This document shows, piece by piece, positions 2,826 to 26,692 of a stretch of DNA of 34,005 bases. The DNA comes from Bacteroidota bacterium (GTDB lineage: Bacteria; Bacteroidota; Bacteroidia; Bacteroidales; ML635J-15): positions 1 through 34,005 of the forward strand of contig JBNJGX010000004.1 in assembly GCA_051748025.1 (NCBI GenBank). The letters are read 5' to 3'. Each line of letters begins with the position of its first letter. Position 1 is the stretch's first letter. Position numbers and translations under genes: made by a program. The notes beneath the pieces are model-generated. The model had not been told where the DNA came from. It worked only from the letters and a program-made list of their open reading frames with translations, and made no database searches.

Positions 2826-4229
2826 GTGGCAAAACCTAATTTACCTTTAATAGAAAAATTACAAATTGTTGATATTGCTTCTGATGGCAAGGCGGTAGGA
2901 AAAGACGGCGAACGGGTGATCTTCGTTCCCAAGCTTGTGCCAGGAGATGTTGTGGATGTACAATTGATAAGAAAAAAGAAATCATTTTTTGAGGGTGTTC
3001 CTGTCAAATTTCATGATTATTCTGAATTCAGGACAGAACCTTTTTGTAAACATTTCGGAAGCTGTGGTGGATGTAAGTGGCAGAATATGTTGTATGAGAA
3101 ACAACTATATTTTAAAGAAAAACAGGTAAAAGAACAGCTTCAACGTATCGGGAACCTTGATTTTCCGGGACCTGAACCTATTCTGGCATCAGGAAAAATA
3201 AAGTATTACAGGAATAAACTGGAGTACAGTTTTTCTGACAAAGCCTGGTTTGAAAAAGAAGATATTGATTCCGGGAAGAAATTTGAAGTTACCAAGGCTT
3301 TGGGCTTTCATGTGCCCGGGCGGTTTGATAAAGTTTTGCAGGTGGACCATTGTTACCTGCAGGCCGAACCCACCAATGCTGTGCGGAATGCCATTCATAC
3401 TTATGCAGTAAAACACGAATTGTCTTATTATAACCCCAGGGAACATACCGGCTTGCTCAGAAACTTAATAATCAGGATTACAAGAAAAGGGGAGGTGATG
3501 GTTGTGCTTGTCGTTTCAGAGTTTTCAGAGGAAGTTAAAGCACTGCTCGAGCATATTAAGGCTTCTTTCCCTGAAATTAATTCACTTATGTATATTGTGA
3601 ATAACAAAAAAAATGACAGCATATTTGACCTGGACGTTACGCTATTTGCCGGGAATCCATACATCAGGGAAAATTTGGATGGTCTGGATTTTAAAATAGG
3701 TGCAAAATCTTTTTTTCAGACCAACACATGGCAAACAGAGGTGTTGTATCAGCAGGTCAGAGAGATGGCAGGTATTAACAATACACATATTGTGTACGAT
3801 CTTTATTCAGGAACCGGTTCTTTATCCCTGTATCTTGCAAGAGATGCCCGGAAGGTTATAGGTGTGGAAATTGTTGAAGATGCAGTTCGTGATGCACGCC
3901 TCAATGCAGAGATCAATGGTCTGAACAACCTTGATTTTTTTACAGGGGACATGAAAGAAGTGGTTACATCCCCTTTTATTTCACAACATGGCAGGCCGGA
4001 CGTGCTGGTTTTGGATCCGCCACGCGCCGGAATACACAAAAATGTGATAAAGGTTATTTTACAAGTATCTCCTGAAAAAATCATTTATGTCAGTTGTAAT
4101 CCTGCAACACAGGCACGAGACCTGAGTTTAATGAAAGATAATTATGATATAGGTCAAGTGCAACCGGTGGACATGTTTCCCCATACACAACATGTTGAAA
4201 ACATTGTGATGTTGGAAAAGAAGAAATAG
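2826..4229 (+). CDS. rlmD: 23S rRNA (uracil-5)-methyltransferase RlmD/RumA family
   Basis: 467 aa. N-terminal TRAM-like region, Fe-S cysteine cluster (CKHFGSCGGCKWQ), SAM-binding DLYSGTGS, and C-terminal DPPRAG...YVSCNP...DMFPHTQHVE. Confidence 0.9.
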   Translation: MAKPNLPLIEKLQIVDIASDGKAVGKDGERVIFVPKLVPGDVVDVQLIRKKKSFFEGVPVKFHDYSEFRTEPFCKHFGSCGGCKWQNMLYEKQLYFKEKQVKEQLQRIGNLDFPGPEPILASGKIKYYRNKLEYSFSDKAWFEKEDIDSGKKFEVTKALGFHVPGRFDKVLQVDHCYLQAEPTNAVRNAIHTYAVKHELSYYNPREHTGLLRNLIIRITRKGEVMVVLVVSEFSEEVKALLEHIKASFPEINSLMYIVNNKKNDSIFDLDVTLFAGNPYIRENLDGLDFKIGAKSFFQTNTWQTEVLYQQVREMAGINNTHIVYDLYSGTGSLSLYLARDARKVIGVEIVEDAVRDARLNAEINGLNNLDFFTGDMKEVVTSPFISQHGRPDVLVLDPPRAGIHKNVIKVILQVSPEKIIYVSCNPATQARDLSLMKDNYDIGQVQPVDMFPHTQHVENIVMLEKKK

Positions 4230-4317
4230 TTTTACAATTATAAAAGCATTGTAACCATACAGAAATAAGGTATATTCGTTATTATTTAATAAGGGTTAAA
4301 TTTAATTTTTTATTATT

Positions 4318-23498: not shown

Positions 23499-24158
23499 TT
23501 AATGTATAAACATGCCACGGGAACCACGGTTGAAACCAGGGAATGACATGTGCGAATTTATATTATGAGTATTGTATCCGAAAGGACTGTAATACGGCGT
23601 GGCATCACCAAAATTAAAATCTGCTTGAATGTGTGCGTTATCGCCAATGCTGTAATCAAAACCAATATGACCGTTTTTGAGGGATTCACTATCTGAGCCT
23701 GGTAACAATGTTAATGAAGCGCCACCCCTGATATTTAAGTTTTTATTTACTTGATATGATCCGGATGCATACATTTGGTATGTTGCCATTTTTTCGAAAT
23801 AAGAATTTTCTTTTGACTCAGGCAGTAGGTTTGTCATGTAGTCAGAAAAAATCATGCTTGTGCCTATGGACATTGAAAACTTTCCCGGTGGATCAACACG
23901 TAAAGAAGGGCTCACATAACTGGAAAACATGTTAGAATTACCATGTGAATAAACTGAACTTCCCATTTGGAGCATTGGATGTAGCTTAATTTTATCTGAT
24001 GATAACTGGTGACTTGTGTTATTTTGGGTCCCTTCATTCAATGAAAAATCGTAACTGCTGTCACTGGCAGGTGTAAAGTAATCTTCTGTTTGGGCAAAAG
24101 TATTACTTGTCACAAATGAAATTATTATGCTTACTATTAATATTAATTTCTTTATCAT
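23499..24158 (-). CDS. hypothetical secreted/outer-membrane protein
   Basis: I set the start at MIKKLILIVSIIISFVTSNTFAQ (ATG 24158), a clean signal peptide. The rest is Ser/Asn/Gly/Tyr-rich, with beta-strand-like alternation. Confidence 0.62.
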   Translation of the reverse strand: MIKKLILIVSIIISFVTSNTFAQTEDYFTPASDSSYDFSLNEGTQNNTSHQLSSDKIKLHPMLQMGSSVYSHGNSNMFSSYVSPSLRVDPPGKFSMSIGTSMIFSDYMTNLLPESKENSYFEKMATYQMYASGSYQVNKNLNIRGGASLTLLPGSDSESLKNGHIGFDYSIGDNAHIQADFNFGDATPYYSPFGYNTHNINSHMSFPGFNRGSRGMFIH

Positions 24159-24440
24159 GATATTACAAAAGTAAAAAAAAATACGATAATAACAAATAAT
24201 AGCTTGCATTTTTTACGCGTTTTCTGACACATTTTTTTCGCCGGATTTTTTGCAATTTGTTGATAAAAAAAAACTCCCCACTTGTTAATATGTACATTCC
24301 CCGTTAGAAGAATTGAATGTGAAGCGGGACAAATGGCTGGAATCATAAGCTGCTCATTGTTAATAATTTGTTGATAACCTTGTGGAAATTATGTTAATTA
24401 AAAAATGCAAAAAAAATTGGAAAGAGGGGTACCTGTACTG

Positions 24441-24448
24441 TATATTTG
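24441..24448 (+). promoter_or_regulatory. -7 box TATATTTG (TAnnTTTG) ahead of the AT-rich small-ORF pair
   Basis: Exact motif. Only two tiny ORFs (5-6 codons) and the 24598 ORF follow. Confidence 0.25.
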
Positions 24449-24597
24449 TAAATACTAAGTGAGGTTAATAAATAATGATTAAAAATAAGTAAAATCTTTA
24501 AATTATGGCACGGTATATTCTTTAAGAAGAAAAATATTTAAATTCTGGTAATACGTTATCGTTATATACTAAAGTTGAAAACAATACATTATATTTA

Positions 24598-24852
24598 TTG
24601 CATAAATTTGATGATAAAGAATTAGGAGAAACAACTTTAAAAATTAAGGAGGGAATTCTTAGAACAACTAAGGATAGCTTTGATGCTTTAAGGATTATTA
24701 ATACTCGAGCAATTTTCGATCAACATGATGAAACAAAAGGAACATTAATTATATATACTTGTTATGGACAGGAAATTGGTTATGAATATTTCAATGTTGG
24801 AGCAGGTTTTTATTTTTACGAAACTTGTGCCAATTATGATAATTATGCTTAA
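24598..24852 (+). CDS. doubtful small ORF (84 aa) with no ATG or GTG start
   Basis: The frame is open only from 24526, and the only candidate start is TTG at 24598. Its stop overlaps the ATG of the next ORF (ATGCTTAA). It could be a gene remnant. Confidence 0.25.
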   Translation: MHKFDDKELGETTLKIKEGILRTTKDSFDALRIINTRAIFDQHDETKGTLIIYTCYGQEIGYEYFNVGAGFYFYETCANYDNYA

Positions 24853-25216
24853 TTTAGTTGTAAAAACTTTTTTATTATCTTTTATTTTTTTAATGTCTTT
24901 TCAATGTTTTGGTCAAAAAATAATAGACCAGCCTAGTGAGCTGGGTATAAAAATTAGTAGTGATACAACAATAAGGATAAAGGAAAATTTTAGATGGTGC
25001 ATTGATACTATAAAATATTTATCAAGTAATAAAAAATCCTTTTTTGTGATGCTTGACGATAAAAAGTTTTCTATTAATGAAATAAAATTTCCGGTTTGGC
25101 CCAAAAAGAAGGTTGTGATTTACTCTTTAAAAGATAAAATTAAAATTATAGGCCAGGAATTTAAAATAACCGAACAATATTTTCCGCTCCTGATAGATCC
25201 CCCTCCTGATAAATGA
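24845..25216 (+). CDS. small secreted hypothetical protein (123 aa)
   Basis: The internal ATG at 24845 gives MLNLVVKTFLLSFIFLMSFQCFGQ, a signal peptide. The sequence is Lys/Ile-rich. No family recognised. Confidence 0.45.
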   Translation: MLNLVVKTFLLSFIFLMSFQCFGQKIIDQPSELGIKISSDTTIRIKENFRWCIDTIKYLSSNKKSFFVMLDDKKFSINEIKFPVWPKKKVVIYSLKDKIKIIGQEFKITEQYFPLLIDPPPDK

Positions 25217-25260
25217 ATAAATTTTTTTGAAAGAGTCTTTTTCTACGGAAAAAGAAAATT

Positions 25261-25690
25261 CCGGAAAGGGTTTCAACAAGAAACGAAGCCGCAAGGCTTC
25301 GGAGATGAGATACTCACCGTTTGAAGCCAGGTGAAAAGCCAACCTCACAGAGATGTGACAAGGCGGCTCGCTCCGGTAAAAGCAGCAAAATGATTAAGTT
25401 CACAAGCAGCTTAAGCCGGCACCCGAAGTGCAGAGGCAAGCAACAGGTAAAACTGTTGAGAGCCAAAGCGAAACGGAAGGGCTAACGCCCGGAAGGCTTC
25501 GGGAGGACAAAAACCGGACAAAAAGGTGGCAACACCCACAACATCGGTTCAGGTTCAGTAATTTGATAAGCTCAACGCTTATTCAAAAAACTGAGCAGGC
25601 AAAATAACTGTAACCTGGTTGACATTGCAAAGCTACGGCAATGCAATGTTAAAAGGGGAATATCGTACAGATGTTCCCCTTTACTGTTTT
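25261..25690 (+). ncRNA. candidate structured non-coding RNA, class unknown (5' boundary uncertain)
   Basis: No ORF of 60 aa or more in this stretch apart from the tail of the rejected 25127-25348 minus ORF, with stops frequent in the + frames I read. Clearly higher GC than the flanks, and purine-rich on +. It has many compact hairpins, three of them with GNRA loops: CGAAGCC-GCAA-GGCTTCG 25284-25301, TCACA-GAGA-TGTGA 25345-25358 and GGTG-GCAA-CACC 25525-25536. Other hairpins are 25419-25431, 25435-25464, 25479-25490, 25550-25617 and 25622-25649. It ends in a terminator-like hairpin. Confidence 0.45.
25652..25690 (+). terminator. terminator-like hairpin closing the candidate RNA
   Basis: AAAGGGGAA (25652-25660) pairs with TTCCCCTTT (25674-25682), a 9-bp stem with a 13-nt loop, followed by ACTGTTTTAT. 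Confidence 0.5.
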
Positions 25691-25698
25691 ATATATAT

Positions 25699-25770
25699 AA
25701 GTCCGAAGTCGGAAGTCCGAAGTCGGAAGATAGAAGAAAAGATTGATTAACACCTTCCGACTTCGGACTT
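25699..25770. repeat. tandem plus inverted copies of a GTCCGAAGTCGGAA unit (hairpin just downstream of the cysteine synthase stop)
   Basis: GTCCGAAGTCGGAA occurs twice in tandem (25701-25714, 25715-25728). CTTCCGACTTCGGACTT (25754-25770) is the exact reverse complement of AAGTCCGAAGTCGGAAG, so either tandem copy can pair with it (17 bp). Confidence 0.7.
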
Positions 25771-25804
25771 ATTAATCACTTCTCTCAGATAGCGATCAGG
25801 AACT

Positions 25805-26692
25805 TTAAAAAACATCCATGCTCAGGTATTTTTCTCCCCGGTCAGGTAAAACAACAAGTAATTTCCCTTCATTGATGTTTTCAGAAGCTTTTTTGGCAGC
25901 GGCCATTGCTGCACCTGAACTTAACCCGGCAAAAATGCCTTCTTTGCAAGCCAGCCGCCTGCACCATTCAACCGCTTCTTCCCGGCTGACAGTTATTTCT
26001 TCACTAAGCAATGCCACATCATAAACACCTGGCATAAAATCCAGTTTGGGATTTTGAATACCCTGAATAACATAAGATGCCGGCGGTAATGCTGCTACCA
26101 TTTTTGTTTTCAATCCTGCTTCACTGAAACGTATGGCAGTGCCCATCAGCGTACCTGATGTGCCTGTACCGGCAACCACAGCATCAACGTGTGGAACCTC
26201 ATTGACAAGCTCACAGCCTAAGCCGTAATAATGTGCCCTTAAATTATCAGGGTTATTAAACTGATTTGTAAACCAGTATTTATCAGGATTTTCCTTTTTC
26301 AGGCTCCGTGCTTTTTCTATGGCACCTTCTGTTCCCAATGCCGGATCGGTAAGTACCAGTTCTGCGCCAAGCGCTTTCATCATTCTGCGTCTTTCCATGC
26401 TCATGCTTTCAGACATCACTATCTGTACAGGATAAGATTTTATGGCACCTATCATGGCAAGCGAAATACCCATATTGCCGCTGCTGGCTTCAAGAATGGT
26501 TTTACCCTGATGCAGGTCGCCACGTTTTTCTGCTTGTTCTGTCATGAATAAGGCCGGCCTGTCTTTTACCGACCCCCCTGGATTCAGCCCTTCATATTTG
26601 GCATAAACCTGTATGCCTTTTTTAAAACCTGTGTTTTTCAATGCCGTCACAGGTGTGTTACCAATATTATCCAAAATGCTTTTTGCTTTCAT
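25805..26692 (-). CDS. cysK: PLP-dependent cysteine synthase (CysK/CysM family)
   Basis: 295 aa. Contains NPGGSVKDRPA (the PLP lysine motif), SSGNMGISLA and GTGTSGTLMG. K versus M subtype cannot be decided by eye. Confidence 0.9.
   Translation of the reverse strand: MKAKSILDNIGNTPVTALKNTGFKKGIQVYAKYEGLNPGGSVKDRPALFMTEQAEKRGDLHQGKTILEASSGNMGISLAMIGAIKSYPVQIVMSESMSMERRRMMKALGAELVLTDPALGTEGAIEKARSLKKENPDKYWFTNQFNNPDNLRAHYYGLGCELVNEVPHVDAVVAGTGTSGTLMGTAIRFSEAGLKTKMVAALPPASYVIQGIQNPKLDFMPGVYDVALLSEEITVSREEAVEWCRRLACKEGIFAGLSSGAAMAAAKKASENINEGKLLVVLPDRGEKYLSMDVF

Follow-up and report, generated by a model that had tools for sequence, protein, structure and literature searches.

A candidate large structured RNA family of narrow distribution in uncultured Bacteroidales, with one copy apparently joined to a two-gene cassette

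Introduction

The DNA described here is a stretch of 34,005 nucleotides, referred to below as the window, from a Bacteroidota bacterium (GTDB lineage Bacteroidia; Bacteroidales; ML635J-15; assembly GCA_051748025.1, contig JBNJGX010000004.1, positions 1 to 34,005 of the forward strand). In one part of the window a non-coding AT-rich module, a predicted promoter and two small open reading frames (ORFs) are followed on the plus strand by a hairpin-dense block and its terminator, and then by a palindrome and the convergent gene cysK (Table 1). An initial annotation, made from the letters of the sequence and a list of ORFs, had proposed that the block is an unclassified structured RNA. Large structured RNAs of unclear role are rare in bacteria, and each of those described has informed our understanding of RNA architecture. 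We present evidence that the block belongs to a family of such RNAs with copies in several uncultured Bacteroidales, and that the copy in the window is a rearranged member of it.

Table 1. Features of the window around the structured block
Feature	Coordinates	Strand	Remarks
Conserved upstream module	24205..24415	+	AT-rich, with (A)TTGTTAATA / TGTTGATAAC boxes and an ACGCGT site
Predicted promoter, Bacteroidota type	24416..24448	+	-33 ATTG 24416-24419; -7 TATATTTG (TAnnTTTG) 24441-24448; 21-nt spacer
Transcript leader and left junction	24449..24504	+	three-way alignment of window, RNA-gene copies and L020/L021/L024
Cassette ORF1	24505..24852	+	homologue of a 116-aa gene in relatives; likely pseudogene or re-initiated
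Cassette ORF2	24845..25216	+	123-aa hypothetical protein; N-terminal signal-peptide-like segment
Right junction, cassette to RNA body	25199..25230	+	only degenerate likeness to the 5′ block of the family
RNA structured body	25231..25651	+	about 20 helices; 84-87% identity to seven full-length copies
RNA intrinsic terminator	25652..25696	+	12-13 bp stem 25652-25682, then ACUGUUUU (terminator scan)
Long palindrome of GTCCGAAGTCGGAAG repeats	25697..25780	.	between RNA terminator and cysK stop; outside the RNA family unit
cysK	25805-26692	-	one 99% relative, four at ~75%, rest ≤57%

The RNA body and its predicted fold

The body and terminator together occupy 466 nt of the plus strand (25231-25696), and homology to the other copies extends in the window from about 25225/25231 to 25694/25696. 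The GC content of the block (0.50-0.53) is well above that of the DNA upstream (0.23-0.31), as the initial annotation had seen, and its AT skew reaches +0.4 to +0.47. The same annotation had described the block as purine-rich, which describes the A component correctly (35% A overall and 56% at unpaired positions) but does not hold for purines in general; the body is A-rich. Folding of the plus strand gave a minimum free energy of -170.2 kcal/mol, compared with -113.4 +/- 6.0 for dinucleotide shuffles (z = -9.5), and none of 100 shuffles was as stable. The corresponding z value is -7.5 for the minus strand of the block and -6.7 for the full-length copy L010.

The fold contains GNRA loops at 25291-25294, 25350-25353 and 25529-25532, UACG loops at 25244-25247 and 25634-25637, and a hairpin with an internal loop at 25435-25464. 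All hairpins listed in the initial annotation can be formed where it had placed them, and its terminator-like hairpin with U run was recovered by a terminator scan; the terminator stem and the UUUACUGUUU tract are kept in all family copies of the alignment. One of its hairpins, GCAC-CCGAA-GUGC at 25419-25431, was dropped because three homologues carry an A.C mismatch there; a long-range helix between 25422-25429 and 25496-25503, which the homologues maintain through G-U and C-G changes, was retained instead.

The block had also been called ORF-free. Short frames do overlap it (up to 59 aa on the plus strand and 73 aa on the minus strand), but no reading frame stays open across the homologues of the body, where indels of 1-2 nt shift the frames, and a six-frame pseudo-protein query against 5.8 billion proteins, designed to pick up spurious gene calls at homologous RNA loci, returned no match, so that no protein homology speaks for a decayed gene.

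As a separate observation, the apical loop UUAAGU within GAUUAAGUUC (hairpin 25391-25402) is invariant in every copy and holds the self-complementary sequence UUAA. It is a speculative candidate for a kissing-loop contact.

Homologues and distribution

The search for homologues started from contigs that carry cysK relatives with 74-75% identity. In these contigs the gap downstream of cysK aligns to the window block, over approximately 25231-25696 and at about 85% identity, while the flanks are unrelated. A conserved 20-mer was then scanned over one genome per GTDB species. Full or contig-truncated copies were found in three metagenome-assembled genomes (MAGs): L008 and L010 in JAYENB01 (‘Bacteroidota MAG066’), L009 and L017 in CAZTNS01 (‘uncultured Bacteroidales’), and L016, L012 and L015 in CAZGPW01 (‘uncultured Bacteroidales’). 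One further locus is represented by contigs of Joint Genome Institute (JGI) metagenomes (L002-L005). Three additional matches of the genome scan (L011, L013 and L014) share only the 20-mer and were set aside as chance matches.

Each of the three MAGs therefore has two to three copies. The copies are 84-87% identical to the body in the window, compared with 74% for the adjacent cysK DNA, and are close among themselves (84-99%). Their gene contexts differ, and include Aldedh/cysK, ppk-ppx, a sulfotransferase/flippase pair, an ABC-2 gene and a DHO dehydrogenase gene; in four genomes one copy is convergent with cysK. The contigs of L012 and L015 stop at the same position, inside the RNA unit. The two paralogues of MAG066, L008 and L010, share 93.8% identity, against 87% with the cysK-linked orthologue in another MAG, which suggests gene conversion or a recent duplication.

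Scans of viral contigs gave no match to the RNA family, and BLAST searches of phage and plasmid sequences gave either nothing or chance matches of 32-38 nt to the palindrome downstream of the block. No nuclease, transposase, recombinase or reverse transcriptase gene was found in the flanks of the copies. Within the collections searched, the distribution of the family is narrow and covers a few uncultured Bacteroidales.

Selection on the structure

A consensus structure was obtained with RNAalifold from seven body sequences and comprises 131 pairs in about 24 helices. Standard pairs fill 97.5% of the cells on this consensus, as opposed to 33-43% when the partners are slid, and five pairs have changed on both sides, with none of 500 shuffles matching the covariation score; both figures refer to a structure drawn from the same alignment, which represents some six close lineages. 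Variation is half as frequent at paired columns as at unpaired ones (p = 0.0013), and where a pair has an alternative state that state is still a standard pair in 28 of 43 cases, against 27% expected for single substitutions (p = 2e-7). Across the alignment G-U occupies 78 cells and A-C only 2, an excess that marks the plus strand as the functional one.

The loops follow the same trend. The loop at 25291-25294 reads GCAA, GUAA or GUGA depending on the copy, and thus remains a GNRA loop every time, while the two UACG loops and the two other GNRA loops are invariant among the copies. The window copy forms 126 of the 131 consensus pairs and has compensated changes of its own (for example 25391/25402, U-A in the window and G-C in the others); its terminator and a hairpin are likewise re-paired. 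The RNA fold thus appears to be under selection, and the proposal of an unclassified structured RNA gains from the folding energy, the homologues, the helix-preserving substitutions and the strand signal together.

The full-length unit of the family

Outside the window the likeness between copies does not end with the body, but continues for about 290 bp further upstream, so that the repeat unit measures approximately 755 bp. It opens with some 190-220 bp of AT-rich DNA without coding capacity, the module, in which (A)TTGTTAATA / TGTTGATAAC boxes (TGTTRATAA repeats) occur three to five times; direct repeats within the module were noted in L016. A small divergent ORF in the module was considered and rejected, as the reverse-strand frames carry early stops in two of four copies. 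The module is followed by a promoter of the form TTTG-N21-TATATTTG, kept in all full-length copies, and by a 5′ block some 65 nt long, the most conserved part of the family; 40 nt within it do not vary in any of the six full-length copies. A frame of 34 codons that begins with GUG runs over the 5′ block and is open in all full-length copies; its substitutions are few and mostly non-synonymous, and it was judged non-coding.

An ordinary copy is thus a self-contained unit made up of the module, a predicted Bacteroidota promoter, the 5′ block and the 466-nt body with its terminator, and would yield an RNA of about 530 nt. Judging by the position of the promoter, some 220 bp of the unit would be left untranscribed. 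A search for terminal repeats, inverted or direct, gave no pair that brackets the unit in two copies. The copies other than that in the window have their own promoter and no upstream ORF.

A chimeric arrangement in the window

In the window the module and promoter lie about 770 bp upstream of the RNA body. The module there shares 75-79% identity with the DNA ahead of the RNA in copies L008, L009, L010 and L016 (BLAST E 1e-14 to 1e-19), and an nhmmer profile of the module matches the window at 24276-24461 (E 2.6e-39). At -33 the window reads ATTG where the other copies read TTTG. The -7 box, together with the bases on either side of it, is the same in all full-length copies and at the ORF1-ORF2 loci of related genomes. 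The promoter role is assigned by means of the published Bacteroides consensus, which would place the start of transcription near 24454-24457.

The DNA between promoter and body has a separate location in related genomes. Window 24491-25198 is 81% identical to loci L020-L024 of the same set of relatives, where ORF1 (116 aa) and ORF2 (122 aa) are found at another place, for example beside AhpC, with no RNA after them. Upstream of these loci stand the module and promoter known from the RNA genes (nhmmer E 1e-44), and in approximately 200 kb of sequence examined the module was found only at RNA genes and ORF1-ORF2 loci. On the left side, the first bases of the leader (GTAAATAC) are of the RNA-gene type and those from about TGAGGT onwards are of the ORF1-ORF2 operon type. 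On the right side, homology to the relatives stops at 25198, and ORF2 continues beyond it with its last five codons (PPPDK) and stop. With up to three mismatches allowed, the window yielded no match to the invariant 36-mer of the 5′ block, and the nhmmer profile of the family matches the window only from profile position 59, at 25225.

By these alignments the window copy is a chimera, in which a promoter module is followed by a two-gene cassette joined to the RNA body at the end of ORF2, with the loss of the 5′ block. The initial annotation had given the limits of the block as 25236-25690 and had treated some 430 nt as a self-contained element. The limits hold to within a few bases, but they cover only the 3′ 466 nt of a gene of about 530 nt, whose promoter in the window lies some 770 nt upstream and whose family 5′ block is missing. 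Similarly, the AT-rich islet of small ORFs that it had noted does adjoin the block, but is a real two-gene cassette lodged inside the RNA gene.

Codon 7 of ORF1 (24523-24525) is an in-frame TAA, whereas L020 reads AGA there. The stop suggests a recent nonsense mutation or an error of sequencing, or else that translation re-initiates at TTG 24598. The other ~108 codons are open despite a GC content of about 25%. An exhaustive protein search with ORF1 gave one clear homologue, 45% identical, and matches to large HEAT/NACHT proteins look spurious. ORF2 has homologues (P0122-P0124) with 66-72% identity (E 1e-36 to 1e-46). Neither Pfam nor PADLOC assigned a family to ORF1 or ORF2, and the AlphaFold model of ORF2 is unusable (predicted local distance difference test score, pLDDT, of 42). 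Complementarity between the RNA and the ORF1-ORF2 mRNA was also examined; the best duplex, at -32 kcal/mol, is inside the shuffled range (minimum -35.6).

Comparison with known RNA families

Rfam 15 comprises 4227 models, among them RNase P, tmRNA, SRP, 6S, OLE, ROOL, GOLLD, raiA, HEARO, group I/II introns, riboswitches and the Bacteroid* motifs. The whole window had no match at gathering score, and searches at E ≤ 10 (25100-25850) and E ≤ 5 (a full-length copy) gave only chance-level matches of 11-24 bits, as against thresholds of 41-110. The window also holds no tRNA or tmRNA gene according to ARAGORN. The failure of the first reading to match the block to RNase P, tmRNA, SRP, 6S, introns or riboswitches was thus borne out. 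The literature consulted held no account of such an RNA, and the sole Bacteroidota RNA met there was a ribosomal-protein leader.

The closest likeness in kind is to the large RNAs OLE, ROOL, GOLLD and raiA. As in these, the RNA extends over hundreds of nucleotides with many short helices, A-rich linkers and several GNRA/UNCG loops; its GC content is well over genome level, it has its own terminator, is non-coding and lacks an obvious cis target, and there is at times more than one copy per genome. The new RNA differs from them in that it does not match their Rfam models, belongs to another phylum and has a very narrow distribution. It also has no evident OapA-like protein and no association with prophages or tRNAs, and its conserved upstream DNA module is shared with a protein operon. 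RNase P RNA, tmRNA and 6S RNA are similarly stand-alone genes of 350-550 nt with a strong promoter (here a predicted one), a terminator and a conserved structure; however, those are single-copy and universal, whereas the new RNA is multi-copy and confined to few genomes.

Bacteroides also has families of paralogous small RNAs (sRNAs), for example FopS, which measure about 100 nt and work through short seed pairing. The new RNA resembles such sRNAs in having several paralogues per genome, each with a Bacteroidota-type promoter and an intrinsic terminator, but is about five times longer and is conserved over its whole fold. The RNAs of mobile elements (the omega RNA of IscB/TnpB or HEARO, the bridge RNA of IS110, and group I and group II introns) are likewise large, structured, multi-copy and often unannotated. 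Unlike these, the new RNA has no adjoining nuclease, transposase, recombinase or reverse transcriptase gene, does not match the HEARO or intron models, and is not inside a host gene; its neighbours are genes of metabolism or of the envelope (Aldedh, PALP, PP_kinase, Ppx-GppA, sulfotransferase, ABC2 and DHO_dh).

A cis-regulatory leader or riboswitch was considered and rejected, since the RNA ends in a terminator and the downstream gene is convergent in the window, in L010, L016 and L017, and in the cysK-linked copies. This agrees with the first reading, which had seen no plus-strand gene for the block to regulate in cis; in the window, as in most copies, the terminator has no co-directional gene after it. 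We rate the RNA as a new family inside a known kind, that of the orphan large bacterial RNAs. No RNA of such size appears to have been catalogued for this Bacteroidales clade.

Neighbouring features

The long palindrome between the RNA terminator and cysK (about 80 nt) is absent from the other RNA copies. Sequence akin to it was met in L019 and, past the end of ORF2, in L020 (with limits put at 1496-1528 or 1496-1560), and contigs of related genomes tend to stop near the GTCCGAAGTCGGAAG palindrome. It looks like a dispersed palindrome similar to repetitive extragenic palindromic (REP) elements, or a bidirectional terminator; Rfam microRNA (miRNA) matches to it are far under threshold. A GC-rich dispersed repeat (TTTGTGCAAACGAGGGCAGAGCCAAGC...TTGCTTGAGCTTTGCCGAGTGC...AGCCAAAATTAT) is present in L020 (1290-1440) and L019 (approximately 4190-4260), and the L020 copy shows a tandem duplication of GCGATGTATTGAGCGCAGTCGAAAT. 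This repeat is probably an element of these genomes that resembles miniature inverted-repeat transposable elements (MITEs).

Immediately upstream of the promoter module the minus strand carries an ORF of 236 aa (23499-24209), which has its start codon right at the 5′ border of the module and for which no Pfam family was found. Below about 75% identity, the nearest relatives of cysK include many from Patescibacteria, Peregrinibacteria and Gracilibacteria alongside Bacteroidales, which suggests lateral transfer of this type of cysteine synthase or a sparsely sampled lineage. An exact-protein look-up gave no recorded match, as called, for the cysK of the window or for an ORF of 150 aa.

Interpretation and alternative explanations

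We consider it probable that the block belongs to a real, unclassified family of large structured RNAs of narrow distribution, that the RNA acts in trans in its normal form, and that the copy in the window is a re-wired chimera. On the left side the chimera would have arisen by recombination between the two homologous promoter modules, and on the right side by an illegitimate join, which put ORF1-ORF2 between promoter and body and deleted the 5′ block. In the genome of the window, transcription from the family promoter would then run through ORF1-ORF2 into the body and stop at 25690, and the body would form a long structured 3′ tail of the cassette mRNA. From the ordinary copies, an RNA of about 530 nt would be made in abundance, fold stably and serve in trans as a scaffold or as a component of a ribonucleoprotein, much as other orphan large RNAs of bacteria do. 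The RNA genes would be under the control of a factor that recognises the repeated boxes, and this factor would co-regulate ORF1-ORF2. The multiplicity of the genes and their dedicated module are reminiscent of stable-RNA genes that need a high or tightly controlled output.

Several points weigh against this reading. The transcript and its ends, like any processing, are deduced from the DNA. The family was gathered with a single exact 20-mer in one genome collection, which bears on its breadth; a metagenome scan with a pattern of the 5′ block gave no match, and one with a two-block 3′ pattern gave only L018, a chance match without further similarity. The alignment holds homologues that are 84-99% alike and is effectively one of six lineages, the covariation consists mainly of one-sided wobble changes, and the agreement with the structure is inflated by RNAalifold having derived it from the sequences on which it was tested. 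Part of the conservation of the module could act at the DNA level. The copies share no partner protein or conserved neighbour that hints at a function. Finally, the window copy is without the 5′ block and without the 5′ strand (UCCGG) of a helix predicted in full-length copies, and is possibly impaired by this loss.

This last point leads to an alternative that accepts the family but takes the window copy for a dead relic, which lost its 5′ block and has a decaying body that separated too recently to have diverged. It is a possibility to be taken seriously, though we think it doubtful. The absence of a block of which 40 nt are invariant in six full-length copies, and that of the UCCGG strand, would fit such a relic, and the nonsense codon in ORF1 of the same transcript suggests a decaying locus. 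However, the body still makes all but five of its consensus pairs and is better conserved than the neighbouring cysK DNA, and the -7 box and the terminator are intact. The compensated changes specific to the window, together with the re-paired terminator and hairpin, also argue for continued constraint, although these changes could predate the rearrangement. The remaining alternatives concern the nature of the family itself. That the body is a cis-acting stabiliser associated with a 3′ untranslated region or terminator, or an antisense or 3′-end regulator of cysK, rather than a trans-acting RNA, is unlikely: the body in the window does sit 3′ of ORF2 in one transcription unit, and a copy is convergent with cysK in four genomes, but every other copy has its own promoter and no upstream ORF, copies also lie beside ppk/ppx, a sulfotransferase gene, an ABC-2 gene or a DHO dehydrogenase gene, and in the window the RNA and cysK end short of each other with a separate palindrome between them.

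About as improbable is a repeat that acts at the DNA level, that is a 755-bp non-autonomous mobile element or recombination substrate with incidental hairpins. Its multiple copies in varied contexts, the contigs that break inside the unit (L012 and L015 at one position), the ~220 bp of non-transcribed DNA within it, and the 94% identity within a MAG against 87% between orthologues, suggestive of gene conversion, could all be read in this way. Against such a repeat stand its edges, since the 3′ edge is a terminator, a canonical promoter directly precedes the conserved transcribed part and no consistent terminal repeats were found; its surroundings, with no transposase or recombinase in any flank and nothing in the phage, plasmid or viral collections; and the strand-specific use of G-U, the conserved GNRA/UNCG loops and the substitutions that preserve pairing. 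Least credible of all is a decayed protein gene or a small-protein coding region, in spite of the short ORFs on both strands and the 34-codon GUG frame that remains open over the 5′ block. The frames of the body are not conserved and tolerate indels of 1-2 nt, the six-frame query was empty, and most of the rare substitutions within the 34-codon frame change the amino acid.

The reading as a trans-acting RNA family with a chimeric copy allows a further suggestion, which we hold to be rather unlikely. The 466-nt body may be a portable, self-folding module that represents a new class of ornate RNA and has two uses. In one it would be an abundant RNA in its own right, produced by several gene copies whose common promoter module is dedicated to them and controlled by a transcription factor. 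In the other it would be attached as a 3′ domain to the mRNA for a small secreted protein belonging to this regulon, where it would serve for stabilisation, localisation or assembly, possibly with oligomerisation via the invariant, self-complementary UUAA loop.

Significance

The module that the RNA genes share with a two-gene operon gives a putative regulon to pursue in these Bacteroidales. For annotation, the locus shows that an ‘AT-rich islet’ and an ‘RNA block’ that seem to be mere neighbours may be parts of one rearranged transcription unit. The variant in the window, without the 5′ block and fused to an mRNA, would amount to a natural domain-deletion experiment on the RNA.

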